Part shown: positions 1,943 to 64,000 of the stretch, in pieces
Layout: the number at the start of each line of letters is the position of its first letter
How positions within the stretch are numbered: the stretch's first letter is position 1
Virus genome (UHGV): UHGV-1358930
Origin: a virus
Reading direction: 5' to 3' (one strand)
Length of the DNA: 64,000 nt
Notes under the pieces: model-generated
What the model was told of the DNA's origin: nothing
Databases searched by the model: none
What the model saw: only the letters and a program-made list of their open reading frames with translations
Position numbers and translations under genes: made by a program

Positions 1943-2446
1943 ACTGTCAATACTTAATTGACTGATGTCAGAGTAATCAGCTAACCTGACAAAGAATGAA
2001 AATGGTCGCCCTCCACCCGGAGGGCGTGGATGGAAATTACGAGATAAGTCCTCGTTATTTACCTTAGGATAGTGGCTAGTTGATAACGCGTAGCGTGACA
2101 ATCTAAGCGGTAAGCTGATGAACTAAATTATTTACAATCGTTAATTAAGTATGTAGCAGCTAGTAAGCTATTACATAGGAGCTCACAATCCTGCCGAAAT
2201 ATCATCTAGAATATTTCCGCGCAAATTGGCTGAAAAGAGTGAGTGGCAAGGAATATGCCAGGAATGATTCCAAAGTTGATAAGCAACTATAACCGGGTGC
2301 AAAACCAATCCCGGTATGATTAGAATCATACTTCTTAATAAGAATTCCGTATATCCTTGATTGAAGTATACGAAATTCGTTGATCCTAAAACGATAGGCG
2401 TTAACACATGTTTTATAGGTGACACCTCGGAAAGACGAGGATATAC

Positions 2447-2522
2447 GCTGGTGTAGCTCAGTTGGTAGAGCAGCTGATTTGTAATCAGCAGGTCAGGGGT
2501 TCGAGTCCGTTCACCAGCTCCA
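2447..2522 (+). tRNA. tRNA-Thr (anticodon TGT)
   Basis: Acceptor gctggtg/caccagc. D-arm gctc-agttggta-gagc. Anticodon stem gctga/tcagc with loop TTTGTAA. T-loop TTCGAGT. CCA encoded. Confidence 0.85.
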
Positions 2523-3265
2523 TATCGGCCGGTTTCGGGTCGTTAGATAAACACAGTGATGTGTATAAAGCATGGTCGATGATTTCTGAACCATGCGACT
2601 GAAGAAGTTCTTCAGTGCAACGGAAAACCAATATTCACTAATCCAAACCTACGGTTGAGGGCAACTGCTAATGCTATGGCTTGGAAGGAGTCATGAAAAA
2701 GGCTCTATATTAACTCGGAAACGAGTGGATGGGAAATTGCTTCGAGGTGCGAATCCTGTTAAGTTCAGTGCTTCGTTGATTTTGAAAGCTCCCTTAAATC
2801 GAAAGATAGGAGCGCTTTCAGTAAAGCCTGTCGATAACAAGACGGCAGAACGGCGACGATTGGGTCGTGCTCAAAAGGTACGAATGGTCAAACGTACACC
2901 TCGTCGTTCATTGGGATCAATACACACTTTAGCTTTCATTAGCACCAGTGGGGTAAACTGTTATATCAAGCAAAAGTGTGTGCGACTTTAGAGAGACAAA
3001 CGACTTATCGTTCTGAAAAATGAACGCGCGTAAAGCTCGCAAGGCAATACGTGAGACAGTACGAGTAGGTGCAACCGTAGGAGACCGCAATCTCCGCACT
3101 CCGCAAGAGGCGATGTGCTAAAAGGAAATCTATAGTGCTTCAGAGTAAGATTTTGCTGGCTTTTACAAAACCAGTGTCGTTGATGCCTACAGCTTAATCG
3201 GCTGTGTGGTCACTCGCTTCCAACGGCGAGAGATGGCATCGTGGCGGGTCAAGATCTCAGCCCGT

Positions 3266-3345
3266 CGTTCAATATAGTCCAATAGCTTATCACGGTAAAG
3301 CGCGTTTGTAAAACGACGAGTGGCTCGGTTCGAACCCGGCTTGGA
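3266..3345 (+). tRNA. degenerate tRNA-like element (anticodon loop TTGTAAA, GTA/Tyr-like); possible pseudogene
   Basis: 6-bp acceptor gtccaa/ttggac. Good D-stem gctt/aagc. T-loop TTCGAAC. Anticodon stem only about 3 bp. No CCA. Confidence 0.2.
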
Positions 3346-3629
3346 CATCCTATTAGACCCTTGCACGCCTCTCAACGATGCGTACCATGCGAGGGTCGAA
3401 ATTAAATAGTTTTCTTGCCGCATTTGGTACGAAGTATCAAAATATCCGCTGCCTGCGGTAATAGGTGATCTGAATATAGATCAAATTCAGATCAACGGCG
3501 TAGCATTTAACGGGCTTTAGCTACACTACACGGTAAGAGTTGAGAAAGCTGGTTGATGTATCGTGCAAACCTGCGGGTCCACGATCCACAGACGGTTCGC
3601 GATGACTGCTGTAAACGGAATCGCGTTTT

Positions 3630-3721
3630 GGGAATGTACTCAAGTGGTTGAAGAGACCAGTCCTGAAAACTGGGAGGTCGTTCATAGCGGCGCGAGCGTT
3701 CGAATCGCTCCATTCCCGCCA
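3630..3721 (+). tRNA. type II tRNA-Ser-like (anticodon TGA) with long variable arm; position 33 is C (atypical)
   Basis: Acceptor gggaatg/cattccc. D-arm ctc-aagtggttgaa-gag. Anticodon stem ccagt/actgg with loop CCTGAAA. About 20-nt variable arm. Perfect T-arm gagcg-TTCGAAT-cgctc. Discriminator G then CCA. Confidence 0.65.
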
Positions 3722-4276
3722 TCCCCGCTCGACGCAACGCGCCTGAGAATGAAACCGATGCAACTTTGGGAGCACGTCACACGGGCGGAAAAGCCGTGCG
3801 TTGCTAAACCTGCTCCAACGTAATGGAGGAAGTCGGAACGGCTAATCCGTCAAGAGCCGAAGAACTGGATCCTAAGCTCATATTCGATAACAACAGAAGC
3901 GTGTAGGTGGCAGCTCGGAAAGACGAGCAAATATAGGTCAGTACAGTGTAATTGGTATCACCCCGGACTGTAAATCCAGCTTGGCCTACTATAGAGATAG
4001 CGCTAAGACCAGCTATCACGGCGTTGAATCAGTGATCAGGTACAAGAAACGCTTAATCTCGAAGCGAAACAGAGTAGCTAAAAGAACTGTACGTTGCATA
4101 GTAGGCAACCAACCGAAATTGGCCGAACTGGCGTGTCGTGTAGCCATGCGACTTTAAATAACAACGGTGGCACCATTACATACAGATGCGCTGCGAGCAA
4201 AGTATGAGAAAGATTATCTTTCTTTTGTCGGTGGGCAGGTTTGAAGTTATCCTGTTGCAGATAAAACTTCAAACAC

Positions 4277-4350
4277 GCCGGTATAGTGTAGTGGTAACAC
4301 CCAATCCTTCCAAGATTGTATTGCGGATTCGAGTTCCGTTACCGGCTCCA
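4277..4350 (+). tRNA. tRNA-Gly (anticodon TCC), copy 1
   Basis: Acceptor gccggta/taccggc. D-stem gtgt/acac. Anticodon stem caatc/gattg with loop CTTCCAA. T-loop TTCGAGT. CCA encoded. Confidence 0.8.
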
Positions 4351-4460
4351 GCGCGAGAACGTCACTGACTAAGCGTAGCACAGTGCATGGATAGGAGGGA
4401 AGCTTCATGAGAAACGACGCGCACGCCTTCTAAGTCTTGAAAGGGGGGGGGACTTAGAAA

Positions 4461-4760
4461 ATGAGCAGAAGCTATAAGAAAACGCCGTGGTGCGGAGATA
4501 AGAAAGGCAAATGGAAAAAGCGCAGAGCTTCAAAGGTCGTGCGCGGATATCTCAGGCGCCATATCGAAGATCTGTTCCAAGATGCGCAATACAAGAAAAT
4601 CTACTGTTCACGGTACATATGCGACTACGGGTTCTTATATCCATGGGAAGAGCATTGGACGTATGTGCAGGAAGAGAATTCACATGTGCGTGCGAATGAG
4701 CCAAAACGTTCGAAAGAAGATGAGTACCGCCAGTGGTATCAAGAGTACAAAGCTAAATAA
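4461..4760 (+). CDS. hypothetical basic protein
   Basis: G-rich RBS before ATG at 4461. 99-aa Lys/Arg/Trp/Tyr-rich ORF. A hairpin gcgctct..agagcgc follows the stop codon. Confidence 0.35.
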   Translation: MSRSYKKTPWCGDKKGKWKKRRASKVVRGYLRRHIEDLFQDAQYKKIYCSRYICDYGFLYPWEEHWTYVQEENSHVRANEPKRSKEDEYRQWYQEYKAK

Positions 4761-4799
4761 CAATCGGTTATGCGCTCTCCGATAAAAGAGCGCACACGA

Positions 4800-4874
4800 T
4801 GGGCTATGGTGAAAAGGCAACACATCAGACTTTGACTCTGACATTTGTTGGTTCGAGTCCAACTAGCCCAGCCA
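4800..4874 (+). tRNA. tRNA-Gln (anticodon TTG), copy 2
   Basis: Acceptor tgggcta/tagccca. Anticodon stem tcaga/tctga with loop CTTTGAC. T-arm gttgg-TTCGAGT-ccaac. Discriminator G then CCA. Confidence 0.75.
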
Positions 4875-4949
4875 AGTAAAAAGAAGACGTTTTATCTCTC
4901 TTTATCTTTCTGTTTGTGGCATCAGTACAAACAAAATGCCACACAACAT

Positions 4950-5026
4950 GGGAATGTAGCTCAGTAGGTTAGAGCGCATGACTATAGGTCATGAGGTCGA
5001 AGGTTCAAGCCCTTCTGTTCCCTCCA
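4950..5026 (+). tRNA. tRNA of undetermined identity; anticodon loop CTATAGG gives a formal anticodon ATA (A34, highly unusual); Ile(TAT)-like, Tyr-decoding or a pseudo-tRNA are all possible
   Basis: Canonical cloverleaf: acceptor gggaatg/tgttccc, D-arm gctc-agtaggtta-gagc, anticodon stem catga/tcatg, T-arm gaagg-TTCAAGC-ccttc, CCA encoded. Confidence 0.6.
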
Positions 5027-5435
5027 AAGCCTATGTCAGTATAGGTCTTGAAATGATAAATAGACCAATACATTATCTTTCTAAAGATAATGTATCTGAT
5101 GAAAAGAGATCATCAACTCTCGGCGAAATATAACTGTTGTGACGAATGTGTCGCTTGACACAAAGAAGTAGCAGGTTCGTCGCTGCGCTTAATCTACTGA
5201 ACTGCAATGTTGATGTAAGCAGTGATAGAGGTTCCCAAACCCATTCAGGGAGATTAAGAAAAAGTTTGCTTATTTAGTAGAAAGAGGGTTGGAGGGGCAC
5301 AGCAAGTAGAATAAATGCAATAGGGCAACAAATTTGAAAGCTAATAAAGGATGTGCTAAGGAGCAGAAGTAACTACCTCTGTCTACTGTGTATTTCTACT
5401 AAATGAGTTTAACTTTTTATTAAGGAGCTTATAGT

Positions 5436-5648
5436 ATGAAAACATATACTTTTATTTGTTATGATAAGTATCCAAAAACAGTTAAAAAGTTCCACACTTT
5501 TAGAAAGCGATTTTCTTCGTTATCAGATATTGCTAAATTCTTAAAATCTTCAAATAAGCTCTATTTGCATGAGCCACTGAAACAGCTATCTAAAAACGAA
5601 TTAGCAATTCTGTCAAAGAAGCTCCGATCGTTAAATAACATCACATGA
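5436..5648 (+). CDS. hypothetical small protein
   Basis: AAGGAG RBS 7 nt upstream of ATG; 70-aa Lys-rich ORF. Confidence 0.4.
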   Translation: MKTYTFICYDKYPKTVKKFHTFRKRFSSLSDIAKFLKSSNKLYLHEPLKQLSKNELAILSKKLRSLNNIT

Positions 5649-5771
5649 AAAATCAAAATATTTATAAATAAGCTAGAAGGTTTTAATTAAATTTTATTTT
5701 TGACAATTATACTAAAATACTAAATTATCCGTATAATTGAACCTAATATAAATGTAGATAGGAGGTGATAC

Positions 5772-7028
5772 ATGATGAAAACATGGAAGCAAAATCTAAA
5801 ACATCTTACCGTCGATCAATACAATCTGTTAAGAGAATTATGTAGCTTGTCTAGAGCAGTATATAATGAAAGTTTGTATAATATTCGGCAGCATTATTTT
5901 GAAGAAGGTTCTTACTTGAGATATGAAGCAAACTACTATCTTGTAAAGAATTCTGATAATTACAAAAGATTAGGTGCAAATGTTGCTCAGCAATCTATGA
6001 AAGGAGCTGACGCATCCTTCAAATCCTTCTTCGGGTTACAGAAGCTCGCTAAATCCGGCAAGTATCAGGGCTGGAAAATACGAATGCCCAAATATTTGAA
6101 GAAAGATTCGTTTTTCAAAATAGTATTTAGTCAAGCGCAGATATCAGATGACAAATTTCGTGTTCCGGTTTCTTTTGATATGCGAAAAGATTACAAAGAA
6201 CCAATGTTCATAAAAATTCCTCCGCATATTATCGGCAAGAAAATAAGGCAGATTCATATTGTTCCTAAGTACAACGGTAGATACTTTGAAGTTAGATACA
6301 TGTTTGACGATATTGATGTAGAAAAGCCTGAAATCGATGCTACAAGAGCAATGGGAATAGACTTAGGTGTCAATAACTTAGCTACTTGTGTAACCGATAC
6401 AGGTGAGTCTTTCATAATTGATGGTAAGAAATTAAAATCAATAAATCAATGGTACAACAAAGAGTTGGCCAGACTGTCAAGTATTAAAGATAAGCAAAGT
6501 ATCAAAGGTTACACAAAACGCCAATACAACCTGACAACTAAGAGAAACAACAGAGTTAACAACTATATTTATTGTGCAGCTAAGAAAATAGTTAACTACT
6601 GTGTCAATAACAAAATTGGTAATATTGTTGTAGGGTATAATGATGGTTTTCAATCGAGATCCAACTTAGGAAAAGTAAATAACCAAAACTTCGTTATGAT
6701 TCCGTTAGGACGACTGAAGAGCAGACTTGAGTATCTTTGCAATCAACATGGAATCAATTTTGTACTTCAAGAAGAAAGTTACACTTCAAAAGCATCGTTC
6801 TTTGACGATGATAAAATGCCAAAATGGAATCCGCAGAATCCAGAAGAAGCAAAATTTTCGGGAAAACGCGTATACAGAGGATTATACATCACATCAAACA
6901 AAACCAAAATAAACGCAGATGTCAACGCAGCACTAAACATACTAAGAAAAAGTAACTTGACAGACCTAACCGTCTTACAAGCTAGAGGCGCAGTCAGCTC
7001 GCCTTCAAGATGCTATATAGCATCTTGA
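5772..7028 (+). CDS. tnpB: TnpB (IS200/IS605-family OrfB, RuvC-like RNA-guided nuclease family); no tnpA partner
   Basis: GGAGGTG RBS. 418 aa. C-terminal RuvC-III-like motif INADVNAALNILRKS. Overall TnpB architecture. Confidence 0.85.
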   Translation: MMKTWKQNLKHLTVDQYNLLRELCSLSRAVYNESLYNIRQHYFEEGSYLRYEANYYLVKNSDNYKRLGANVAQQSMKGADASFKSFFGLQKLAKSGKYQGWKIRMPKYLKKDSFFKIVFSQAQISDDKFRVPVSFDMRKDYKEPMFIKIPPHIIGKKIRQIHIVPKYNGRYFEVRYMFDDIDVEKPEIDATRAMGIDLGVNNLATCVTDTGESFIIDGKKLKSINQWYNKELARLSSIKDKQSIKGYTKRQYNLTTKRNNRVNNYIYCAAKKIVNYCVNNKIGNIVVGYNDGFQSRSNLGKVNNQNFVMIPLGRLKSRLEYLCNQHGINFVLQEESYTSKASFFDDDKMPKWNPQNPEEAKFSGKRVYRGLYITSNKTKINADVNAALNILRKSNLTDLTVLQARGAVSSPSRCYIAS

Positions 7029-7071
7029 TAAAGATTTTTTTAATGAATTTAATTGATTTATTTAAAATCTG

Positions 7072-7142
7072 CTGATGTAGCGCAGCTGTTAGAGCAACCG
7101 ACTTTAAGCAATGAGTCGTAGGTTGAAGTCTAGCAACCAGCT
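7072..7142 (+). other. tRNA-like remnant directly 3' of tnpB (D-arm-like tagcgcagctgttagagc, 5/7 acceptor pairing, aberrant 8-10 nt anticodon loop TTAAGCAATG)
   Basis: Partial cloverleaf only. Could be a disrupted tRNA, a tRNA-derived insertion target, or part of the TnpB-associated right-end RNA. Confidence 0.2.
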
Positions 7143-7153
7143 AGATTTGATAT

Positions 7154-7227
7154 GCGGATATAGTGTAACGGTAACATCCGACTCTTCCAAAGTCGTGTTG
7201 CGGGTTCGAGTCCCGTTATCCGCTCCA
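7154..7227 (+). tRNA. tRNA-Gly (anticodon TCC), copy 2
   Basis: Acceptor gcggata/tatccgc. Anticodon stem cgact/agtcg with loop CTTCCAA. T-arm gcggg-TTCGAGT-cccgt. CCA encoded. Confidence 0.8.
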
Positions 7228-7421
7228 AGAGGGAGTATGCACCCCGCTACCCATCTAGTATGTCGACTATCTGATGGCGCGAAATTTAACTGAAAAGAGC
7301 ATATATGCAAGCTTGTCGCATATGAGTACAAGTGTCGTAAAGTCAATACGATGTCTAACTATTTTGACAAAGGCAGAGAAGCTGCTATAATCGGGTGCAA
7401 AAACCATTCCCGATACAATAA

Positions 7422-7498
7422 GGGTCTTTAGCTCAGTTGGTCAGAGCATCCGGCTCATAACCGGACGGTCCAGGGTTCAAACCCCTGAAGACCCACCA
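7422..7498 (+). tRNA. tRNA-Met elongator-type (anticodon CAT; Ile2-lysidine identity cannot be excluded)
   Basis: Acceptor gggtctt/aagaccc with 1:72 paired. Anticodon stem tccgg/ccgga with loop CTCATAA. T-arm caggg-TTCAAAC-ccctg. Discriminator A then CCA. Confidence 0.9.
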
Positions 7499-7713
7499 CA
7501 ATTGGTACAACACGACTGTAACGACTCTCGCGGTTTAAAGTTGTATCCCACTTCTTGATTGAGGTGTGAAGTGTCAAGAGAGCTTCCGACGAGTCTTATG
7601 GGCACCACCTAGCGGTGAAAAGATAAGACAATCGTCATTAGATCTAAGTTGTCCGGCAGTGTTAATGTTATTGAATCATGGTGAAATTGTGATCACATCT
7701 GCCGGATACATAT

Positions 7714-7782
7714 CCTCCCGTAGTGTAGTGGTAGCACTAGCGTCCGTCAGGGCGAAGGATCCGTTCGAATCGGAAGGGAGGT
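7714..7782 (+). tRNA. tRNA-like, probably defective (GTC/Asp-like anticodon region but no proper 7-nt loop/5-bp stem; 4-bp T-stem; no CCA)
   Basis: Acceptor cctccc/gggagg. D-arm gtgt-agtggta-gcac identical in style to the Gly tRNAs. T-loop TTCGAAT. Confidence 0.3.
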
Positions 7783-7997
7783 TGTCTGGCACGGACAAAG
7801 TGCAGAACCTATCAAGAGGAATTCAGTGCCTGCCTCGCTTCGGATAGCAAAAGAAGGCGTTTGGTAGTAATCGACAAACTACTCGCGGTTACAGAGAGGG
7901 AGAGGCGTTACAGGTAAACCTCTTAGGTGCTATGATATCAGGCACTTAGCAAAGCACAGCTTGCAGTTAGGACTAATCCGACCAGATATCAAAATAT

Positions 7998-8071
7998 GCA
8001 GCTATAGTGTAATGGTAACACTCAACTCTTCCAAAGTTGTATTGCCGGTTCAAATCCGGTTAGCTGCTCCA
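7998..8071 (+). tRNA. tRNA-Gly (anticodon TCC), copy 3
   Basis: Acceptor gcagcta/tagctgc. Anticodon stem caact/agttg with loop CTTCCAA. T-arm gccgg-TTCAAAT-ccggt. CCA encoded. Confidence 0.8.
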
Positions 8072-14605: not shown

Positions 14606-16501
14606 ATGTCATTTAGCGCCTTAGAGAAAAAGATACAGGCAAATGCTCAAAAGTACTATACAGATGGCAGTCAAGAGCTTTCAGATAAAGAATTTGATAA
14701 TCTTGTAGACAAGCTCAAAGAAGAAAATCCAGCTTCTCCGATGCTAAAAACAGGCTGGGGATACGATGTAAACTCAGATACAACATCTGGGCATAAAGTT
14801 AAGCATAAGTATGGAGAAGTTGGCTCCCTCGATAAGGTCCATAACTGGAAAGAATTAAAAAGTTCTTTGAGAAATTCCGAGGTTGTTACTTCCTTGAAAC
14901 TCGACGGACTTTCTGTTGTAATGTACTATGAAGCAGGGCAGTTTAAATCCGCAGTGACTCGAGGAGATGGTGTAACAGGTATTGATATCACAGACAAGAT
15001 CGGGATGATATTGCACAAAAAGACTCTGACTGATAATACATTCAGTGGAGGAGTTAGAGGCGAAATTGTTATGTCTAATGAACAATTTCGACGTTACAAA
15101 TCTCAGCACGAAGATGCAAAGAACGCAAGAAATACAGCTGCAGGTATCATCAATTCTAAAGAATTGTCAGAAGATCTAGATTTTCTATCTGTTGTAGTAT
15201 ATAAAGTTGTTGGAGGTAACAAAGCATTTGACAATTATTCCAGTATGCTGAGTTGGCTTCATTCAAATTTTATCGATGTCGTAGATTGTGATATAACTAA
15301 GCTGTTTGAAGATACACTAGATTCCAGAATGGTTGAATACAAAGATGCTTGGTATGATGAATATCCAGCAGATGGAATTGTAATTGCCAGCCAAACTTTA
15401 AAACTACAAGAAGCAAATAACGAATATATCTACGATTTTGATTCTCAAGCGTTCAAGTTTCCCGCCGAATCGAAATTAACCAGAGTTAAATCCGTAGATT
15501 GGTCGCTATCCAAAACTAAATACATGATACCTGTTATCAATGTAGAACCCGTTCAGTTGTCTGGCACCACTGTTCAGTTTGCAACAGGATTCAATGCGAA
15601 ATACATAAAAGATCACAACATTGGGCCAGGAGCTGAAATTGAGCTTTGCAAAGCAAATGAGATAATCCCTTACGTTCTGAATGTCGTCTCTCCGTCGTCT
15701 GACATGTCAATGCCTACACACTGTCCGTGTTGTGATGCGGAGTTGATTCAGGCTGGTGTGAACTTGATGTGCCCCAACTATAAATGCACTAATTATCAGA
15801 AGACAGACCTCTTGATTTGGTGCAATCTATTGTCTCCAGTTGACGGCATTGGTGATGTACTCAGAGAAAGATTCTTGTATGAGGTATTCGGAGATTTGAC
15901 TACAGTCGATTCTCTCATGTCTAGATCTGTAGAGGATCTAGACCTAGAATTCTCAATGTACAATGGATCTGGAAAGCAGTTTGAGTTATTCAAACATTCG
16001 GTATATATGTTGTTCAATCAATCTGTTGATATTGCAACAGCGTTGCAAGCTTTAAATATTCCTAGATTAGGTCTAGAAACTTCTAGAAAACTGTCTGAAT
16101 ATCTAGATGTAATTGAACGAATACTCAAAGTGAGTCTAGGAGAAGCTCCAGTTTCAGAAATATCGAATCTGGATAGCTTCATTGGCTACGCTAATGCAAA
16201 TTCCATCCTAAGTCACCTAGATAAATTCGCAAGGCTGAAGTATATATGGGATAGAATATCTTGGTCTGATACAACTGCAGATCGAGTTAAAGTTGCAATT
16301 ACAGGTAAATTGTCTGTAAAACGATCTGAATTTGAATCGGAATTAAATCAACATGGATTTGAACTTGGCTCATTGTCTAAAGACACTGTTTATCTAATTA
16401 CAGATGACCCGAATAGCGGAAGTAGCAAGAATATTCAAGCTGACAAATACGGAGTATCTAAAATAACTGAACAAGATTTCCGAAATAAATTCATGAGGTG
16501 A
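14606..16501 (+). CDS. ligA: NAD-dependent DNA ligase (LigA family)
   Basis: Adenylation KxDG motif (SLKLDGLSV). Four-Cys zinc finger HCPCCDAE..CPNYKC. C-terminal HhH/BRCT-like region. 631 aa. Confidence 0.85.
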   Translation: MSFSALEKKIQANAQKYYTDGSQELSDKEFDNLVDKLKEENPASPMLKTGWGYDVNSDTTSGHKVKHKYGEVGSLDKVHNWKELKSSLRNSEVVTSLKLDGLSVVMYYEAGQFKSAVTRGDGVTGIDITDKIGMILHKKTLTDNTFSGGVRGEIVMSNEQFRRYKSQHEDAKNARNTAAGIINSKELSEDLDFLSVVVYKVVGGNKAFDNYSSMLSWLHSNFIDVVDCDITKLFEDTLDSRMVEYKDAWYDEYPADGIVIASQTLKLQEANNEYIYDFDSQAFKFPAESKLTRVKSVDWSLSKTKYMIPVINVEPVQLSGTTVQFATGFNAKYIKDHNIGPGAEIELCKANEIIPYVLNVVSPSSDMSMPTHCPCCDAELIQAGVNLMCPNYKCTNYQKTDLLIWCNLLSPVDGIGDVLRERFLYEVFGDLTTVDSLMSRSVEDLDLEFSMYNGSGKQFELFKHSVYMLFNQSVDIATALQALNIPRLGLETSRKLSEYLDVIERILKVSLGEAPVSEISNLDSFIGYANANSILSHLDKFARLKYIWDRISWSDTTADRVKVAITGKLSVKRSEFESELNQHGFELGSLSKDTVYLITDDPNSGSSKNIQADKYGVSKITEQDFRNKFMR

Positions 16502-34350: not shown

Positions 34351-34406
34351 AGAGAGTTTTGTATTCCTTTGAAACCCTCTCTGAAAATAAAAATAATAAG
34401 GAGAAG
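34351..34406 (+). ncRNA. candidate preQ1-I-type riboswitch-like leader (hairpin + A-rich tail + SD) upstream of queF
   Basis: agagag..ctctct 6-bp stem, then gaaaataaaaataataaggag with the SD in the tail; architecture only, no model scan possible. Confidence 0.3.
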
Positions 34407-34413
34407 TAAAAAA

Positions 34414-35925
34414 ATGCTAAAATCAAACAATGGAAGAACATCCGAAGACTTATCAGGAGTAACTCTACTTGGTAATAACAACACTGAGTACAACTACGAC
34501 TATACTCCAGAAGTTCTAGAAACATTTGTAAACAAGCATCCTGACAACGATTATGTTGTCACATTTGATGCTTATGAATTTACAAGCAAGTGTGTCACCG
34601 GAGACACTATGATAGATGTTGCATGTAATGAAACTGACAATCCGGATGGAATTCCAATCAAAGATTTGGTAGGTACAGAAGGATATGTGTTTTGTGTAGA
34701 TCCCACTACATTACAACCATTATGTAGGAAGTATCGAGATGTACGAAAGACTGGAGAAAGTGTACCTGTAGTTAAAGTACTCATGCAAAGTTTGAGAACA
34801 GATGGAAAGGGTAACACATACTATGAATCTTCTGAAATCAAGTGTACACCTGATCATATGATATTGGTGAAAAAAGGATTCCATGATAGCGAATGGGTGT
34901 GTGCAAAAGATCTCAAACCTGGCATGAGGTTGATTGCAAATCAAAGAAGTGGAGATGTAATACGATCTAAACTTCGACACAGACTTATTGGGGAAGCAAT
35001 TTTTGATGAAGATATTATGAATATTCATCATATAGACGGTAATCATTACAATAATGACCCATCTAATCTATCTAATTTATCTTCTCATGATCATCACCAT
35101 CTTCATAGATCTCAAGAATATGGATACGATAATTTAGATGTATCATACTTAGTTGATCTGTATAACTCCGGAGAAAACTTCAACTCCATAGCAAAGATGT
35201 TCAACTGTGATGTATCTACCATTGAATCTAGAATAGGTAATATAGTTGGAAGACGGACACAATCAGAGTCATTATCACTACGAAATAACTTGTTGAATAA
35301 AGAGCGGGATAGCGAAATCTGTGAATTGTACAACAAAGGATACTTGCTATCTGAAATTGCAGATTACTTAAATATCCACAGTACAACAGTGTTAGGAGCA
35401 CTAGAAAGACACGGCATCCCTCGCAGAGAATCGAACTTCTCTAGGTACAATCGAAAGAAATTGAACCTCCCACCATTGAATCATAAAGTACTAGCTGTAC
35501 TAGATGGTGGATATGAAGATGTGTACAACATGGAAGTAGAAGGAGTTGAAAACTATTTTGCCAATGAAGTGATAGTCCATAACTGCCCAAAAACGGGGCA
35601 GCCAGATTTTGCAAAAGTTGTAATTAGTTACATTCCTAATGAGAGAATGGTTGAAAGCAAGTCCCTAAAGCTTTACCTCTTTTCTTTCCGCAATCATGGA
35701 GATTTCCACGAAGACTGCATGAACATCATCATGAAGGATCTAATTCATCTTATGGATCCGAAGTACATTGAAGTAAAAGGTATTTTTTCTCCAAGAGGAG
35801 GTATCTCCATCTTTCCCTTTGTTAACTACGCGAATCCGAAATTTAATTATCAGGATTTTGCAAAGTCTCGAATGCTGGAGGCGCTTAGAGATTCGAGCAA
35901 TAGAACAGTAAGATACGATATGTGA
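34414..35925 (+). CDS. queF: NADPH-dependent 7-cyano-7-deazaguanine reductase QueF (YkvM type), interrupted by an intein (extein 172 aa)
   Basis: N-extein ends ..AYEFTSK, C-extein starts [18 protein letters not shown]..; spliced junction [14 protein letters not shown] matches the QueF catalytic motif E(F/Y)TSLCPxTGQPD. Confidence 0.8.
34591..35583 (+). mobile_element. intein (331 aa) within queF carrying an HNH endonuclease domain and two HTH modules; inserted immediately before the QueF catalytic Cys, which serves as +1 residue
   Basis: Block [11 protein letters not shown] at the start; terminal VIVHN followed by extein Cys; HNH core [23 protein letters not shown]. Confidence 0.75.
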
Positions 35926-49302: not shown

Positions 49303-49879
49303 TTGTATATATACACCATATTGTACATACAAACAATGCGACTTAGCTTGTCCTAATAGAGCTGAAGTGAATTGTTGGTTCAAACGATGCCGACTTGATA
49401 TGTCAAATAATTGCTTGCATACTAATATCCGAAATATTGAGAAAGCCGAGGATCTACTAAGTAACAAGTATGGAGAAACTGTGTGGTTTCCCACAGATAA
49501 TCCTTCAGATGCAAGCGACACTATTTGCTACGTAGCTATTTGCAAATATGGTAAAGGTACTGCTCTTGGAAACGGAATATACAATCTGGATTTTGCAAAA
49601 TTTATAGATATGATCAAGGAGTCCTGGAATACGCATTTTGAAACAGATAACTTAATTCAGATGCGTGTGTGGTCTTTGTCTGCAAATTACCTAGTTATCT
49701 CAAATCTAGATTATGTTAGATTTCAAGATTTTGAAAGTCAAACGTTGCTAAGGCTTCTGAATGATCGAAGAGATTATACAAAGACAACTGTAGTAGTTAC
49801 TAGTAAAGAACCTTTGGTCGGCAGCGGAAATTTCTTTCCTAGATTGACTTCTTTGCTAAAGGGGGTCAAGAGCAATTGA
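49295..49879 (+). CDS. hypothetical protein, Cys-rich N-terminus (possible helicase-associated factor)
   Basis: 194 aa immediately upstream of the helicase gene; function not inferable from sequence alone. Confidence 0.45.
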   Translation: MHDCIYTPYCTYKQCDLACPNRAEVNCWFKRCRLDMSNNCLHTNIRNIEKAEDLLSNKYGETVWFPTDNPSDASDTICYVAICKYGKGTALGNGIYNLDFAKFIDMIKESWNTHFETDNLIQMRVWSLSANYLVISNLDYVRFQDFESQTLLRLLNDRRDYTKTTVVVTSKEPLVGSGNFFPRLTSLLKGVKSN

Positions 49880-52299
49880 CGAATTCAGTAGAACTTCAAG
49901 TTATTTGTAAAATTTTAACAAGTCAAGATGATTCTGAAATTGATAGGCTGTGTGCGTTTGATGAATCCTATTACGCAGTATTCAAAGATCAGATCAAATT
50001 TATTCTAGATCATAGAGAAAAATATCATACTGTCCCAGACTTGTTTACGTTCCAAGCTCAATTCGAAGACATTGTTTTGATTGATGTAAACGAATCTGCA
50101 GATTTTTTAGTAGACGGACTTCGGAAAAACAAGCAGCAGATCATACTCTTACAAACATTCAATAAGCTATCTGAGTTAGGTTCTGCAGACGTTTCTGAAG
50201 CTTGGCAGTTCTTACAATCCCAATGCGACAAAGCTGCTCAACTTGATAATTCTAACCCGATGGATATCATCAAAGAAGCTCACAAGCGAAGTGATCAAGT
50301 TTTATCGCTAAGTAATCAAACAAGAATTCCTACAGGATTCAAAGAAGTAGATGAAACAATGTATGGAGGATTGTCAACTGTTGAAGAACTTTGTCTTGTA
50401 GTTGCTAGAACTAACACAGGTAAAGCTCAGCCTCTTTGGAGTAATATCTTAACACCTACTGGGTGGAAGCGTATGCGAGATATTCAAGTAGGAGACATTG
50501 TATGCGGTAGAGATAATGACAATGGTAAAGTAGTTCAAATATTTCCGCAAGGTACAATTGACTACTATCGTGTAAAGTTTGATGATGGTACTTATACGGA
50601 GTGTTCTGCAGATCATCTTTGGGAAGTTCTGGATAGTGAACGAAGGAAGCATGATAGAAAAACTTATGGTCAGTATCTTACATTGACTACTCGAGATATT
50701 CGGAATCATATGTATCGCAGATACTCTGTTGATATGTGTGAACAAATTGAATTCGAGAGTGCTTTTGATACAGATAGTGAACTTGACGGATATTTTTTAG
50801 GAGCATTTATCGGGCATGGTAGAAATGTAGGTAACAAGCTATATATTCATTCTCTGTCCGATGTTTCAAAGCGACGTATAATTGATGCATTGTCTAAATA
50901 TCGTTGTCAATTCACAGAAAATGATCCAAATACACTCGTGATTGAGGATAAGAATGATGGTAAGCTTATCCAAAAGATGTTCGAGTACAACTTGATGAAC
51001 TGCAAAGTCATTGATAGACATATTCCGGATATATATTTTCATAGCCCTGTAAATGTTAGAAAAGCTCTGTTATCAGGTCTCTGCGATACAGATAGCACAA
51101 TGTTATCAAAAAATCATAGAGGTTGGGTTTTCGTTACATCTTCAGATCAGCTTAAATCTGATTTTGTTTACATTGCTAGATCTTTAGGTGTAAAAGCAAA
51201 GGTGTCGACTGCAAGATCTGGTAGATGGGTTGACTTAGGTGTATCGCACGTTGCGAATACGTACCACAGGGTTATGTGTATCTCAAAATTCAATCCGTTT
51301 TATGGTTCACCAAATTACACAGAATTTGAACGCAGACAGGATAAAACTAAATTTAAAAATCGCAAGCGTGTTTGCAAATTCATTGATTCTATTGAATACG
51401 TAGGTAAGACGGAATGCCAGTGTATCATGGTAGACAATAAGACGCATACATATATTACAGATGATTTTATTGTCACACATAACACCTGGGTTACTACTAA
51501 GATGATGGAGTCTGCACAAGCGAATGGATTTCCTGTACTATATTATAGCCCAGAGATGCAATCTGCTTTCATTGGCACACGATTTGATACCTGGAGAGGT
51601 CACTTCCGAAATAGCGATATTCAACGAGGTAAATACAGCGAAGACTACATTCAGTACATCAAAGACATTGTTAAAGAGGAAACTGGTGCATTTGTTGCAG
51701 AAGACAAAGATATGCCAGGAGGAAAAACAACTGTCAGGTCGATTGAAACTCTAGTCAAGCGACATCATATAAAGCTTGTTATCATTGATGGTCTGTCTTA
51801 TATGGCAGATACAGAAAAGTCTGATAGCGATGTTATTAAGTATAAAAATATATGTACTGGACTATTCCGAATGTCTAAAACATATGGATGTGCTGTAGTA
51901 GTATCTGTACAAGCTAATAGAGACACTAAATCTAATGTCGATGACAAAGGAGTCCCGTGGCCTGATATGTATTCGATTGAAGGCTCAGACCATCCAGGAC
52001 GTATTGCAACTCAAGTATTTGCGCTTCGACAATTGTACGAAGAGCATACATTAGAGATAAAGCTGTTGAAGACTAGAAATGCAAAGAATGCAAATCCTAC
52101 GTTCGCATATGTATGGGATCCAAATACAGGAAACACAGAGTTTGTTTCGGATGATGCATCGGCTGCTCCTCCTTCTGCTCCTGCACAGCCTAGCAAGTTC
52201 TCAACGCCGACAGTGTCAGCAAAGATTGTACACACCGATATAGATGATAATCTAATCGATGCCAGTACAGATGACGATCTAGATGACGTTGAGTTTTGA
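49876..52299 (+). CDS. DnaB-like replicative helicase (T4 gp41-like), interrupted by an intein in the P-loop
   Basis: Exteins join as ..LVVARTNTGK|TWVTTKMMESAQANG (Walker A GxxxxGKT). C-terminal RecA-like motifs: Walker B LVIIDGLSYM, SVQANRD. Confidence 0.8.
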   Translation: MTNSVELQVICKILTSQDDSEIDRLCAFDESYYAVFKDQIKFILDHREKYHTVPDLFTFQAQFEDIVLIDVNESADFLVDGLRKNKQQIILLQTFNKLSELGSADVSEAWQFLQSQCDKAAQLDNSNPMDIIKEAHKRSDQVLSLSNQTRIPTGFKEVDETMYGGLSTVEELCLVVARTNTGKAQPLWSNILTPTGWKRMRDIQVGDIVCGRDNDNGKVVQIFPQGTIDYYRVKFDDGTYTECSADHLWEVLDSERRKHDRKTYGQYLTLTTRDIRNHMYRRYSVDMCEQIEFESAFDTDSELDGYFLGAFIGHGRNVGNKLYIHSLSDVSKRRIIDALSKYRCQFTENDPNTLVIEDKNDGKLIQKMFEYNLMNCKVIDRHIPDIYFHSPVNVRKALLSGLCDTDSTMLSKNHRGWVFVTSSDQLKSDFVYIARSLGVKAKVSTARSGRWVDLGVSHVANTYHRVMCISKFNPFYGSPNYTEFERRQDKTKFKNRKRVCKFIDSIEYVGKTECQCIMVDNKTHTYITDDFIVTHNTWVTTKMMESAQANGFPVLYYSPEMQSAFIGTRFDTWRGHFRNSDIQRGKYSEDYIQYIKDIVKEETGAFVAEDKDMPGGKTTVRSIETLVKRHHIKLVIIDGLSYMADTEKSDSDVIKYKNICTGLFRMSKTYGCAVVVSVQANRDTKSNVDDKGVPWPDMYSIEGSDHPGRIATQVFALRQLYEEHTLEIKLLKTRNAKNANPTFAYVWDPNTGNTEFVSDDASAAPPSAPAQPSKFSTPTVSAKIVHTDIDDNLIDASTDDDLDDVEF
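50425..51483 (+). mobile_element. intein (353 aa) with LAGLIDADG homing endonuclease; class-3-like (Ala1, WCT motif)
   Basis: Starts AQPLWSNILTPTGW; ends FIVTHN|T. Block B ..ADHLW, block F ECQCIMV, block G Thr-His-Asn. LAGLIDADG motifs LDGYFLGAFIGHG and LLSGLCDTDS. Confidence 0.65.
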
Positions 52300-59207: not shown

Positions 59208-60476
59208 TTGAGTTTATTTACCAAGTCACAAATGGCGAAATTCAATGAAGTTGCCGAACGAAGCAAACAGCTTAACAAAGAAAAACCAAAGTCTGTAAAT
59301 GTATCTACAGTAAATGCGGAATTGAAGTCGATGTCAGATTCTGTGCTAGAATACTTCAAAGACTCCCCTGCTATCTGCATTCGAACCGCTGATCAGCTAC
59401 ATGAATACATTGATAAATGTATCGAAGCTGGATACGCTGGTATAGATACAGAAACAACGGGACTAGACAGACAAAGAGATTACATTGTAGGCGCGTCTTT
59501 ATATTATCCGGATGGTACAGAATGTTATATTCCGATGAAACATAAGATCCCTATTTTCGAAACTCCTTACAAAAATCAACTGTCTTATGAAGAAGTAACT
59601 AAAGAATTCAAACGACTAGAAAACAGCAACATACGACTCATTTTTGCAAATGCTGACTTCGACTTAGCAATGATCTACAAGGATCTAAAAGTTGATTTCA
59701 ACGATAGATTCTATTATGATGTTATTCTTGCATGGCGTTGTTTGAAGGAGAATGAGTTACACAATGACTTGAAATTCCTTTACAATAAATATGTATTGAA
59801 AGGAAAAGGAGATCCTAAACGTTTTAGCGATTTCTTTTCTGTAAAGCTGTTCCCATATTCTGATCCTGAAATCGCTAAATTGTACGCAGCAAACGACGCA
59901 AAAATCACATTTCAACTGTTCAAGTGGCAGCTTCCTTATGTTACAGAAAGTCATCCTAAGTGTCAGAAAGCTCACCTAGAAGCAATATCTAGACTCATTT
60001 GGAACATAGAGTTTCCACTGGTTAAAGTCTGCCAGAATATGTATAGAAGAGGTTCATACATTGATTCTAATGTTGCTAGTGTTTTGAAAAAGCGATACAG
60101 AGATGAATACAATGTAGAAGTCAAAAAGCTACAAGACATGGTACAAAAAATCATTGATAATACGAATATAGCATATTCAGGTAAACGTCCATTTACTAGA
60201 GGAGCAGATTTCAACCCATCTTCACCTCCTCAAGTTAAATATTTGATATACAATCTACTTCAAATTCCTAAAGGATCGTCTTCTGGAACAGGTAAAGAAG
60301 TATTGAACGAACTTAATCTGCCTGTAACAAATCAGATACTGAAGGTAAGATCTCTATCTGTACTTATCAATACATTCGTAGAGAAGCTACCAGCTGCCGC
60401 AAGTCTGGATCATAGAATTCATGGTCAGTTCAAGCAGGTGGGTGCAGCCACGGGCAGGTTGTCTTGTGCCGAGCCT
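59208..60476 (+). CDS. family A DNA polymerase, exon 1 (3'-5' exonuclease domain and start of the polymerase domain; TTG start)
   Basis: Exo I motif GIDTETTGL; ends at ..KQVGAATGRLSCAEP (PolA motif TGRLSSxxPNLQNIP), then out-of-frame sequence and a stop. Confidence 0.75.
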
Positions 60477-61382
60477 AAACATGATAAATCAGATTGGGCT
60501 CGTAAAATCGAGTTAATTCAGGGAAGGGTAGCAGCTTGACGCTGTGAGATAACCCTGAGCCAAGGCTCTCATATATCTACTTAGGAGGTACACGATATGA
60601 GAAAGATTCAATTCAATGAAGAGACCATCAATGCAATTAAAAATTTTATAGAGTCTGGTCACACAATGGAAGAGACATGTAACAGATTTACGCTCAAATA
60701 CGATACATTGAAACGTGTAATGTTTGAGAACAATCTGAAGCCGTATAGAGCAGATAAATCACATCCCGTTATCTTCACTAGAGATGAGGAAAACATCGTA
60801 TGTAAGCTATATTCGACAACTTCAATGACAATGAAAGATATCTGTAAAGAAGTGAAGCTACCTGATTACGCTGTGCAGAAAATACTATCGGATAATTTTT
60901 CTGAAAAATACAGAAATGAAAGGAAAGCAAAGCTTTATAGATTGTCCAAACGGTGCGAGAATAGTCCGTGGTTTCAGAAATACGGAGCAGACTCTTCTCA
61001 GTGGGTCGGAGGCGTTGTAGACGATGGCAACGGATATGATATGATCAAAAAACCTGAGTGGTACACAGGTAGAAAGTGTTCTGATTATGTCTTTTTACAT
61101 ACAGTTGTGATGTGTGAGCACTTAGGTCTAACTGAACTTCCTAAAGGATATGTAGTACATCATATCGACGGAAACAAGAAAAATAACACAATAGATAATT
61201 TAGCGTTGATGACCGTGTCAGGACACAGTAAGTTACATTTGTTGATGAAGAATCTATGCAAGGTGCAGAGACTATCCGAACAGGAGTAAGCGAAAGCTGA
61301 AATGCTAGACAATGGTTGTGTATGACATCTATCATTCCTACTAGTTATACAAGCCATCGAAGATATAGTCCACAAATAATTG
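60477..61382 (+). mobile_element. putative group I intron 1 in the DNA polymerase gene (encodes HNH endonuclease)
   Basis: Exon 1 ends after U (cct|); the intron ends in G immediately before exon-2 codon AAC; free-standing ORF with its own RBS inside. Confidence 0.6.
60597..61289 (+). CDS. intron-encoded HNH homing endonuclease
   Basis: TAGGAGG RBS; HNH core VVHHIDGNKKNNTIDNLALMTVSGHSKLH. Confidence 0.8.
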   Translation: MRKIQFNEETINAIKNFIESGHTMEETCNRFTLKYDTLKRVMFENNLKPYRADKSHPVIFTRDEENIVCKLYSTTSMTMKDICKEVKLPDYAVQKILSDNFSEKYRNERKAKLYRLSKRCENSPWFQKYGADSSQWVGGVVDDGNGYDMIKKPEWYTGRKCSDYVFLHTVVMCEHLGLTELPKGYVVHHIDGNKKNNTIDNLALMTVSGHSKLHLLMKNLCKVQRLSEQE

Positions 61383-61450
61383 AACCTGATGAATATCCCG
61401 TCGCATGCGGTTGATATTCGACATATGTTCAGAGCAACTCCCCAGAAAGA
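61383..61450 (+). CDS. DNA polymerase exon 2 (3' boundary uncertain)
   Basis: Begins NLMNIPSHAVDIRHMFRA, completing the PolA motif P-NLQNIP..IR.aF; the downstream read-through does not match the expected DYSQIELR region. Confidence 0.5.
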
Positions 61451-62848
61451 TTACACAGTTGAATCAGAAGTAGATGACAATAACGAAGTATCATTCGTTA
61501 TTGATAATGGACATGAATTACAAACATCTGAAGGATATAAGCCAGTAGTAGATATTGTTCCCGGAGATGTTGTAATGTTTGATGATAAGGAGGTATCAAG
61601 CTTAATTGTCAAAGAAGTTGAAACTAAAGGTACGTCAACCCGAGTACGTTTTGATGTCATCTGACTACAGTTTACGAAAGTTGGCTGTAGTAAAACCTTG
61701 TTAAGTCGATGAATACTTGATAGATAATTCTATAACCTAAATACAAGAATTGGTTCGACTATCAAGTTAATATCGAGCAAAATAGGACCTTTTATCTTGT
61801 TGAGTATAGTCTCTTAAAAATTGGAGGTATTCGACATGATAATATATAAAATATACAATGATGTTAATTCTAAGCTTTACATCGGTCAAACAACAAAATC
61901 GCTTGAAGAAAGAATAAATGGGCATCATTCTTCTATGATAGGAGGGCAAGATACTCATCTATATCGAGCAATGCGAAAATACGGATGGGAAAAGTTTCAT
62001 TTTGAAATAATATCCAGAGCTGATAGTCAAGATGAATTAAATTATCTTGAAGAGTATTATATCCGTAAGTTAGATACAATAAGAAATGGATATAACATGG
62101 CTCCAGGAGGATCAAAAAATGTTATGTACTCATCTATCGTAGCAGCTAAACATGATGCTAAAATGAGAACAGATTCTGTAAGAAAGAAAATATCAGAATC
62201 AATGAAAAAGTCTTATGCTTCACGCGGTGGTCCCTCAGAAGAACACAGGAAGCATCTTTCACAAGCCAAGAAGGAATATTATCAAACTCCTGAAAGCGAA
62301 TTGACACGAGAAAGGTTTAGAAAGTCATTCAAGCTATCTCCTGAGCATTATAAGGCACTGAATGACGCGAAAAACAAAAGTGTATATTGCATAAATGAAT
62401 CTAATGAAGTAGTTGCAAAATTTGATAGGGTCAAAGATGCAGCTATTTGGTGGATGTCTACTGGGTACAAAGTTAAACATTATGATCAACTTTGTGACAA
62501 AATAAAAGAGTCCAGCAAGCAAAATAGATTCATAAAGGGGCTAAAATGGTTCTATTGTGTGTAGAGACTATCGAAAGCTAGAAATTGACATTCAGAGAAA
62601 TCTGTAAATGATTTTAGGTAAATCAGGTCAGTTGAGATAACCAAGTGAGTAGAGTACAGCTCAAGTGAGTTAGCATCTGCATGATATTAGTGTAGAGTAA
62701 GCCTATTGAATGGAAATTCAAGGGTTCATTTGAATTGGTGATAGATTCAAATGTTCAAGAGATAGTCCGGCACTCTTGGTGACAAGAGAAATGTTTAACG
62801 AACATTCAACTAATTAAGCAGCAAGAACCAAAAATTTGCGCATACGTA
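61451..62848 (+). mobile_element. putative group I intron 2 (encodes GIY-YIG endonuclease); boundaries approximate
   Basis: Non-coding flanks around a free-standing GIY-YIG ORF; exon 3 resumes at about 62849 after an in-frame stop. Confidence 0.4.
61821..62564 (+). CDS. GIY-YIG homing endonuclease
   Basis: YKIYNDVNSKLYIGQTT GIY-YIG motif; TGGAGG RBS. Confidence 0.8.
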   Translation: MEVFDMIIYKIYNDVNSKLYIGQTTKSLEERINGHHSSMIGGQDTHLYRAMRKYGWEKFHFEIISRADSQDELNYLEEYYIRKLDTIRNGYNMAPGGSKNVMYSSIVAAKHDAKMRTDSVRKKISESMKKSYASRGGPSEEHRKHLSQAKKEYYQTPESELTRERFRKSFKLSPEHYKALNDAKNKSVYCINESNEVVAKFDRVKDAAIWWMSTGYKVKHYDQLCDKIKESSKQNRFIKGLKWFYCV

Positions 62849-63025
62849 GGTAACATCAAAGAACTTTGCGAAGGTTTTGCAAACGGGAAAGATGCTTACG
62901 CGATGATCGCAGCTGTTTCTTTCAATAAGTCATATGAAGAATGCTTAGAGTTTCACCCTGTTACGCATGAGTATCAGCCTGAAGGTAAAGCAAGAAGAAC
63001 AGAATCGAAGTCCGTACTTTTGGGT
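62849..63025 (+). CDS. DNA polymerase exon 3 (boundaries approximate)
   Basis: GNIKELCEGFANGKDAYAMIAAVSF..RRTESKSV aligns with the PolA region NLIEAFRRGLDIHTKTAMDIF..RRQAKAVNFG; the frame then diverges and stops at 63067. Confidence 0.5.
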
Positions 63026-64000
63026 GAACGTAAAAGTTATGCCCCATATTTCAAGTTCTCGCATTAAATTTGCTTGAAATATGAAAATCTTGTGAACTAC
63101 ATTGCTCATAGGTGTTGAGAACACGATTAGGATATACAGGAAATGGTATATAGGTTCTCAGCTAACTGGGGATACTCAAAAGAGTGAATCCAGTGCCAAG
63201 CATCAAGTCTTCACGGAGTTCTATACCTTACATCATATCGGAGGTGTAGAACTTGAACAATTATTCATCATACATCATAACTTGTAAGGACAATGGAATG
63301 CAATACATCGGAATAACTTCTATTGGTTTAAGAAATAGGTGGTATGCACATGTTTCATGTTCTCGAAATTTAAGTAGTAATAATCCAATGTATAAGGATA
63401 TGAAAGAATTTGGAGAATCCTCTTTTGAAATACATGAAATTGAATCTGGGTTATCAAAAGAAGAAGCCGATGCGCGTGAAAAGGAACTAATAAAGATTTA
63501 TAATACAAAGTGGCCTAACGGATACAACTTAACAGACGGTGGATTCAAGAATGATGGACAGTTATTACCAGAAGGTCGATCGGCTAGAATATCTTGTAAG
63601 CTACGCGGAGTTCCTAAATCAAGCGAGCATAGATTGCATCTAAGTCAGTCTAGGATTGGAAAATACAAAGGAGCAGACAACGCCTTCTATGGTAAACATC
63701 ATTCTGATGAAACTATATTGAATCTTCAGAAGCTATTATCCCACGGAAAGGTTTATCAGTTAGACAAAAAATCTAAATTAGTTGTAGGCACATTTGATAG
63801 CGCAGCGTTTGCAGCAAGATACATATCTGAAAACAAATTATCTTCTGCAAAAATAGATACTATAAATGCTAGATTATGCGAAGTTATGAACAATGATAAT
63901 CGTTCCGCATACGGTTTTATGTGGAGACGCGATGAAGGTCAATCGACTAAGTATTAGAAGAGAAAATAGAGCTACTCTTCGAAGCGCAAGACATTAAGCG
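63026..64000 (+). mobile_element. putative group I intron 3 (encodes GIY-YIG endonuclease); runs to the window end
   Basis: Polymerase homology is lost after ..SVLLG; free-standing GIY-YIG ORF follows. Confidence 0.35.
63253..63957 (+). CDS. GIY-YIG homing endonuclease
   Basis: YIITCKDNGMQYIGITS..RWYAH GIY-YIG motif; GGAGG RBS. Confidence 0.8.
   Translation: MNNYSSYIITCKDNGMQYIGITSIGLRNRWYAHVSCSRNLSSNNPMYKDMKEFGESSFEIHEIESGLSKEEADAREKELIKIYNTKWPNGYNLTDGGFKNDGQLLPEGRSARISCKLRGVPKSSEHRLHLSQSRIGKYKGADNAFYGKHHSDETILNLQKLLSHGKVYQLDKKSKLVVGTFDSAAFAARYISENKLSSAKIDTINARLCEVMNNDNRSAYGFMWRRDEGQSTKY

Follow-up and report, generated by a model that had tools for sequence, protein, structure and literature searches.

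Predicted mobile group I introns and a two-frame split in the family-A DNA polymerase gene of an uncultured gut phage

How can a DNA polymerase be produced from a gene that lies in pieces? The question is raised by a 64,000-nt stretch of the virus genome UHGV-1358930 (hereafter the window; plus strand), in which a polymerase locus extends from position 59208 to the window end. An earlier reading of the same DNA (the original prediction) described a PolA-family gene fragmented by at least three intron-like insertions, each with its own homing endonuclease. Our analysis leads us, with high confidence, to a polymerase gene that has been invaded by mobile group I introns carrying homing endonuclease genes and that is, in its second exon, further split into two open reading frames (ORFs). 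The window contains the 5′ two-thirds of the gene, which belongs to phrog_17 and starts at a TTG codon with taaggagga ahead of it (Table 1). Exon 1 encodes the 3′–5′ exonuclease and the N-terminal part of the family-A polymerase, ends in the residues TGRLSCAEP, and is 83% identical to its uninterrupted homologs.

Related loci that differ in their insertions were drawn from public assemblies. One contig, L004, matches the window with 100% identity across 8,748 nt and runs past the window end; two others, L001 and L017, are 96.6–99.4% identical to it in flanking and exon DNA and carry different sets of insertions; and some, L011–L013 among them, have fully uninterrupted polymerase genes. The occupancy of each insertion site was surveyed across 79 related loci. 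Among metagenomic proteins there are relatives with 81–83% identity to the window polymerase, whereas the closest phage isolates are approximately 30% identical at the protein level and a megablast search against GenBank phages returned no DNA-level relative of the polymerase region.

Alleles that lack individual introns fix the exon boundaries to the base, including those of exons 2 and 3, which the original prediction had been unable to place from sequence alone. L001 lacks exactly introns 2 and 3 as delimited in Table 1, and L017 lacks exactly intron 2 and has no insertion at 60476/61383. The break originally placed after TGRLSCAEP is real, in that the conserved part ends at 60476 while the ORF reads 20 codons into the insertion, and the polymerase motif does resume 906 nt downstream, at NLMNIPSHAVDIRHMF (61383). 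A second break and resumption likewise exist, but the true restart is QQEPKICAYVGNIKEL (62819), 30 nt upstream of the GNIKEL at which the gene had been taken to continue. The third break follows SVLLG (63025), and the corresponding intron end, which lies outside the window, is known from L004: the last 47 nt of intron 3 fall past the window end, with the P7 3′ strand, P9, and terminal G located 9–47 nt beyond it, and the intron is complete in L004, L017, and L010. Several pairs returned by pattern searches at site 3 were false, with gaps of more than 2 kb, and were disregarded. Beyond the window, L004 continues with an exon 4 that contains an in-frame insert of 336 aa, followed by a 358-nt intron 4 without an ORF and by exon 5.

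All four introns lie between codons, and a surveyed locus either has an empty site or carries its insertion at the identical codon boundary. In 16 loci site 2 is occupied (by 307–398 nt without an ORF or 1,047–1,147 nt with one), and in 43 it is empty; sites 1, 3, and 4 are empty in 40–46 related loci. The ORF-less versions of intron 2 (L014, L029, and others) delete exactly the P6 loop. Such precise presence/absence polymorphism at conserved sites marks the insertions as mobile.

Removal of the introns restores a continuous gene. The spliced exons form an 855-codon frame with no internal stop, which is 81% identical over 852 codons to the uninterrupted gene of L011, with a ratio of non-synonymous to synonymous change (pN/pS) of 0.17 and saturated synonymous sites; relative to L017, there are 23 synonymous and two non-synonymous differences. 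Judged from these substitutions, the polymerase gene is alive and under purifying selection. Exon 3, which spans the second half of motif A to the start of motif B, is particularly informative. Its frame opens at 62783 and its first ATG comes at 62903, and its first 28 codons, the motif A glutamate among them, contain no start codon; therefore, expression of this segment requires RNA splicing. No Shine–Dalgarno (SD) sequence was found for exons 2 and 4.

The insertions carry the signatures of group I introns. In all four, the base ahead of the 5′ splice site is a U engaged in a U·G pair in P1, and the terminal base is G, a pattern that the original prediction had recognized at junction 1, where U indeed precedes the insertion and G is its last base. 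The J8/7–P7 element GAUAUAGUC recurs in all four introns (as GAGAUAGUC in intron 2); its partner, GACUA(U), falls within the final codons of the endonuclease ORF, and all four introns contain GACUA. Wherever an intron contains an ORF, the endonuclease gene is housed in the P6 loop, with covariation of P6 on either side. Together with the precise empty sites, the U·G pair, the terminal G, and the covarying helices described below bear out the proposal that the three window insertions are group I introns.

In intron 1, the guide GGGCUCG (60496–60502) pairs with exon CGAGCCU, placing the U·G pair at the splice site, and P7 is formed by 61270–61275 with 61365–61370. Across three lineages, P1, P10, and P3 vary in step with the exons: the P1 pairs are CGAGCCU/GGGCUCG, CAACCCU/GGGGUUG, and UGACCCU/GGGGUCA, the P3 pairs are UCGAG/CUAGA, UCAAG/CUUGA, and UUCGG/CCGAA, and P10 tracks the 3′ exon codons. 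RNAalifold applied to the three site 1 sequences recovered P1, P4, P5, P7, and P8, with compensatory changes in 13 of 63 pairs.

Intron 2 has the guide GCUGUAGU (61684–61691) and a P7 that joins 62566–62570 to 62763–62767. An alignment of 14 distinct homologs, from which the L6 ORF had been removed, was used to score 17 helices, comprising P1, P10, P3–P6, P7, P7.1 and its two sub-hairpins, P7.2 and its extensions, P8, P9, and P9.1. Standard pairs fill 95.7% of the cells, compared to 30.8–40.5% when the partners are slid by one to three columns; the covariation score is 0.573 versus 0.07–0.11 in the slid controls; and not one of 500 shuffles attains values as high as those observed. The P3/P7 pseudoknot is present, and 59 of the 89 pairs have changed on both sides. 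P7 of L005 shows two compensatory changes. P1 consists of 8 base pairs with one compensatory change and a U·G pair that is invariant in all 14 sequences. The guide tracks the exon, with GAAGU facing exon UUC and GUAGU facing exon UAC, as does P10, where GUUG or GCUG faces 3′ exon CAGC or CAAC, and GUGU faces GCAC. At sites 3 and 4, RNAalifold yielded a group I topology from six and five sequences, with 44 of 80 and 27 of 75 pairs compensatory, respectively.

The insertions had been said to contain one HNH and two GIY-YIG endonucleases as free-standing ORFs with strong ribosome-binding sites, an assignment that holds: all three pass their Pfam thresholds, and ggaggt lies 7 nt ahead of each start. 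The intron 1 ORF, preceded by taggaggt and a 7-nt spacer, has its HNH motif near the C-terminus and overlaps the P7 5′ strand with its 3′ end. The intron 2 ORF, for which an alternative TTG start is possible at 61821, occupies the P6 loop, and its last codons form the P6 3′ strand, J6/7, and the P7 5′ strand; its product weakly matches the catalytic domain of I-TevI (1mk0, E=2.5e-4). The product of the intron 3 ORF shows a weak NUMOD3 match. Both GIY-YIG ORFs match phrog_314 (E=1e-29 to 1e-30) and are 27% identical to each other, and a PDB sequence search gave no match for the HNH protein or the second GIY-YIG protein. By sequence criteria, the three are predicted homing endonucleases of the HNH and GIY-YIG families, situated within mobile introns.

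Table 1. Exons, predicted introns, and ORFs of the polymerase locus in window coordinates
Feature	Coordinates	Strand	Description
Polymerase exon 1	59208..60476	+	423 codons; Pfam DNA_pol_A_exo1 and DNA_pol_A
Group I intron 1	60477..61382	+	906 nt; HNH ORF; site empty in L017 and 46 loci
Intron 1 HNH homing-endonuclease ORF	60597..61289	+	230 aa; HNH_3 48.2 bits (cutoff 24.8); phrog_7545 E=1e-33
Polymerase exon 2	61383..61671	+	289 nt; from frame translations; identical in L001, L004, and L017
Hint-like tail of the N-terminal piece	61443..61664	+	73 aa and TGA stop; absent from uninterrupted homologs
SD sequence and start of the C-terminal ORF	61586..61608	+	SD TAAGGAGGT at 61586-61594; TTG at 61606; MSKKLKLKVRQPEYVLMSSDYS...
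Group I intron 2	61672..62818	+	1,147 nt; GIY-YIG ORF; exactly absent from L001 and L017
Intron 2 GIY-YIG homing-endonuclease ORF	61836..62564	+	242 aa; Pfam 41.0 bits (cutoff 22.6); phrog_314
Polymerase exon 3	62819..63025	+	69 codons, QQEPK...RRTESKSVLLG; from intact-homolog alignment; empty sites on both sides in L001
Group I intron 3	63026..64047 (window part to 64000)	+	1,022 nt; GIY-YIG ORF; absent from L001
Intron 3 GIY-YIG homing-endonuclease ORF	63253..63957	+	234 aa, TTG start; Pfam 42.6 bits (cutoff 22.6); phrog_314

In the mechanism that we favor, each transcribed intron would fold into a group I core and self-splice, joining the exons into the 855-codon frame, and the endonucleases would cut intron-less alleles in co-infecting relatives so that the intron is copied in. 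Such homing would explain the differing intron sets of near-identical genomes. Splicing, endonuclease activity and homing, as well as the intein splicing and the assembly of two polymerase pieces considered below, are processes that we infer. A possible trace of this traffic is found around site 1, where L017 carries a true intein (Intein_splicing and LAGLIDADG) nine codons upstream of the intron 1 site. The window (60435–60476 and 61383–61388) and L017 differ at nine positions over 14 codons spanning both sites, all of them synonymous, compared to a divergence of about 1–2% elsewhere. This cluster is what would be expected either from co-conversion of exon sequence from the donor or from selection for target-site immunity.

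Two observations weigh against splicing introns. The gene is in many pieces, and the Rfam model for group I introns (RF00028, Intron_gpI; gathering threshold 50 bits) leaves introns 1–3 unmatched even at E≤10, as it does the ORF-less homologs of intron 2; it aligns full-length to intron 4 at 23.9 bits (E=0.0076) and scores 26.5 bits on a site 4 relative, both sub-threshold. It was because of these sub-threshold scores that the structures above were derived from the sequences. A similar shortfall of the model on phage IA introns has been reported (PMC11878797). (Rfam matches to mir-1902, greA, and RFPL3-AS1 were discounted, as they scored far below threshold and fell within coding sequence.) Both observations would suit a dead, pseudogenised polymerase broken by insertions and never spliced. 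That account is very improbable given the stop-free spliced frame, its identity to intact homologs, the excess of synonymous differences from L017 and the low pN/pS against L011, and the intron helices kept by compensatory changes.

Alternatively, free-standing endonuclease genes may have cut the polymerase into separately translated fragments without any RNA splicing, as is known for T4-like gp43 and Aeh1 nrdA (PMC2677866), and the exon 2 break is itself of a two-ORF type. For the introns we give this arrangement very little credence, since exon 3 lacks a start in its first 28 codons and an SD sequence is missing from exons 2 and 4; moreover, the DNA flanking the endonuclease genes folds into covarying group I structures whose guides pair with both exons, and ORF-less versions of the insertions occupy the same sites. 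The further possibility, raised with the original prediction, that the three insertions are inteins removed at the protein level draws on the true intein of L017, nine codons from site 1, and on the intein-like insert downstream in the same gene. It retains next to no probability, being refuted by the reading frames: the three insertions are out of frame, contain stops, and encode independent ORFs with their own ribosome-binding sites.

The position of intron 1 is a classic one. When gene 31 of phage SPO1 is mapped onto the window gene, its intron falls after ...TGRLSSNEP (gagcct|) and before NAQQFP, nucleotide-identical to the intron 1 site, so that the suspected likeness to SPO1 polymerase introns is exact for intron 1. 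The introns of SPO1 (I-HmuI), SP82, Bastille (I-BasI), and Pf-WMP3 (I-PfoP3I) all share one common position (PMC3428280), the intron 1 site between TGRLSxxEP and N-x-Q-x-x-P, and an HNH enzyme is common to intron 1 and SPO1. In contrast to this positional identity, the SPO1 intron and intron 1 have no significant nucleotide similarity and their HNH proteins are 33% identical over 46 residues only, having just the HNH motif in common; the HNH motif of intron 1 is C-terminal like that of I-PfoP3I, whereas that of I-HmuI is N-terminal (PMC3428280). The Bastillevirinae offer a second parallel, in that their polymerase genes are likewise family-A (phrog_17) and contain several IA-type group I introns, most of which carry an HNH or GIY-YIG (phrog_314) gene within a loop, where it interrupts the ribozyme model; partial covariance-model matches are common (PMC11878797). 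That survey, which is without insertion-site coordinates, reports at most three introns per gene (PMC11878797), compared to the four introns, intein-like insert, and two-ORF split in the gene of the uncultured gut phage described here.

The architecture of intron 2 resembles that of the IA2 phage introns (T4 td with I-TevI; Pf-WMP3, PhiI, and W31), which are defined by the lack of P2 and by a P7.1 and a P7.2 that lie between P7 and P3′ and are joined through G-U-A (PMC3428280). Intron 2 likewise comprises P1–P10 without P2, and its P7.1 and P7.2, similarly placed, covary; its linker is the longer conserved GAGUAGAGUAC and not a bare GUA, and we describe the intron as IA2-like, by architecture only. 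As in intron 2, the ORF of Pf-WMP3 extends from the P6 loop through the P6 3′ and P7 5′ strands (PMC3428280). The introns at site 3 have a P2 hairpin.

Several relatives present variations on these insertions. L018 (10703–11232) has the same site 4 intron as L072 (10743–11114) plus approximately 160 non-coding bases in the P6 loop, perhaps what is left of an endonuclease gene that has decayed. At site 1 of L049 (9255–10632), an intein start (GRMS|CIEGSQLID...) appears to be combined with a group I 3′ core (agagatagtcc) that directly precedes NLQNIP, possibly a nested or adjacent intein-plus-intron arrangement. In L081 and L086, whose polymerases are approximately 30% identical to that of the window, a group I-like insertion ending ...gatgatatagtcc... 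lies directly before NLQQIP, suggesting that, in these metagenomes, polymerases that have diverged widely share the use of the SPO1 site.

The second peculiarity of the gene lies within exon 2. In intact homologs, RATP (61442) is followed by GYVMLGSDFSQQEPK, which is motif A. The original prediction had the gene simply break again in this region; the break after RATP is not an intron boundary, and what had been missed is the segment PEYVLMSSDYS (61639–61671), the first half of motif A, which is encoded in the +1 frame. That segment, together with the empty sites of L001 and L017, also rules out the post-RATP break as the 5′ end of intron 2 or as an intein. Exon 2 thus comprises the end of an N-terminal ORF, in the frame of 61383 and closed by a TGA at 61662–61664, and the start of a C-terminal ORF in the +1 frame, whose TTG sits 11 nt after TAAGGAGGT and which reads through PEYVLMSSDYS. 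The two ORFs overlap by 59 nt in the window; after splicing, the N-terminal piece measures 516 aa, and the C-terminal piece holds motifs A–C.

The arrangement recurs in relatives. A survey of the family found 16 distinct alleles without the insertion, three in which both parts are fused in frame, and a further 14 distinct sequences that are broken, which amount to 12 alleles (11 besides that of the window) once near-identical pairs and triplets are merged. Since L001, L004, and L017 agree, and given this survey, the frame break is real and not a sequence error. All broken alleles have a strong SD sequence and a start 11–17 codons before YVML, in frame +1, +2, or 0, with the second start anywhere from 56–65 nt before the upstream stop, where the ORFs overlap, to 218 nt after it. 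Furthermore, approximately 70 of the 120 best database homologs are 511–544 aa long, most with the tail at their end. The variable frame and spacing, combined with a constant SD and start, fit two translationally coupled genes and not a programmed frameshift. The polymerase would accordingly be made from two coupled ORFs, with the C-terminal piece starting at its own TTG, the codon that also opens exon 1, and the two pieces would assemble non-covalently.

The tail that ends the N-terminal piece is a partial Hint β domain resembling an intein fragment, with approximately 54 residues that superpose on Hint domains of 130–170 residues, about half of the fold. It does not qualify as part of a split intein: tail and leader lack both TxxH and a terminal HN or Asn, and Pro occupies the junction. 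Selection on the tail is difficult to gauge by pN/pS, as the 110 flank codons used for comparison include introns or inteins in several loci, which confounds the contrast, and the tail values themselves are weak. The Pfam Hint labels on two proteins of 519–520 aa (P0068 and P0093) were set aside as evidence for the tail because they stem from true inteins at the TGRx|S site.

The closest known arrangement is that of fractured genes, split inteins, and genes split by homing endonuclease genes (PMC2677866), in which a replication enzyme is likewise encoded by two adjacent same-strand ORFs, with a Hint segment ending the first and with stop and start overlapping. The window split differs in that its halves are not separated by an endonuclease gene, roughly half of the Hint fold is left, and the splicing residues are missing. 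It is tempting, if still tentative, to suppose that a large gut-phage clade normally makes its replicative family-A polymerase as two polypeptides, in which the half-Hint remnant serves as a non-covalent docking module and the 11–17-residue leader of the C-terminal piece completes its β sheet. We found no published description of a family-A polymerase split just before motif A, and no published account of a naturally split PolA or of an exapted intein fragment of this kind. If functional, the two-ORF split with its intein-derived tail would be a new way to build a replicative polymerase, and the half-Hint tail might be a small natural protein-docking module.

Two other readings of the exon 2 break lead to a single polypeptide. 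In one, ribosomes would pass it by a programmed +1 frameshift, with the internal SD sequence as stimulator; the 59-nt overlap, the strong SD sequence upstream, as at known frameshift sites, and the three relatives with both parts fused in frame are all compatible with this. It is nevertheless unlikely, as no conserved slippery site was seen and in other broken alleles, where the second ORF is in the +2 or 0 frame and sometimes follows a gap of up to 218 nt, it is always equipped with an SD sequence and a start of its own, at a constant distance from motif A. In the other, the tail and the leader of the C-terminal piece would constitute an active, atypical split intein joining the halves by protein trans-splicing, an idea to which the Hint-like fold and sequence motif of the tail and the precedent of adjacent split-intein halves in fractured genes (PMC2677866) lend some appeal. 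Trans-splicing is quite improbable, as the tail amounts to only some half of a Hint domain and both the TxxH block and the C-terminal junction of HN/Asn plus Cys/Ser/Thr are missing; the window allele moreover lacks the Cys found in many relatives, and the leader is followed by Pro-Glu or Pro-Ala.

The translationally coupled split and the group I introns together bring an unusual density of elements (four introns, an intein-like insert, and a gene split) into one gene, and the window introns extend the polymerase-intron phenomenon known from SPO1, Twort, and the Bastillevirinae to an uncultured gut-phage lineage. Because near-identical genomes carry different subsets, they constitute a natural system for homing, for competition between introns and inteins for neighboring sites, and for co-conversion. 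The locus is also a warning for annotation, as gene callers render the polymerase as at least five fragments with no apparent relation and the introns escape Rfam.

Exon 4, which lies outside the window, holds its insert (L004 9276–10283, equivalent to window positions 64528–65535) in frame (CVDFDTEIL...FLTGN|SIIQG), exactly between the ...RQCVN and SIIQG of intact alleles. The insert has a Cys1, a TDNH, a terminal Asn, and a +1 Ser, all of which are kept in five related inserts (250–342 aa). There is no Pfam match, and PDB profile matches to Hint proteins are weak (E=0.006–0.06); the insert may be a member of a divergent intein family.

Two probable inteins are seen elsewhere in the window. 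A DnaB-like helicase ORF (49876–52299, plus strand) is 807 aa long compared to approximately 447–450 aa in L005 and L007, with a Pfam Hom_end match at aa 383–448 ahead of DnaB_C, and probably contains an intein with an endonuclease. Similarly, a QueF-like (7-cyano-7-deazaguanine reductase) ORF of 518 aa (34369–35925, plus strand) carries Intein_splicing at aa 152–405 and a helix-turn-helix, a probable intein. A TnpB-type ORF (5772–7028, plus strand; OrfB_IS605 and Cas12f1-like TNB) lies among nine tRNA genes clustered at 1869–8071, where ARAGORN assigns a tRNA-Tyr with an odd 'ata' anticodon (4950–5026) and an Rfam abiF RNA match falls between tRNA genes (3359–3395, plus strand; 38.3 bits, gathering threshold 37). 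Finally, the window encodes a phage NAD-dependent DNA ligase with adenylation and OB domains (14606–16501, plus strand).

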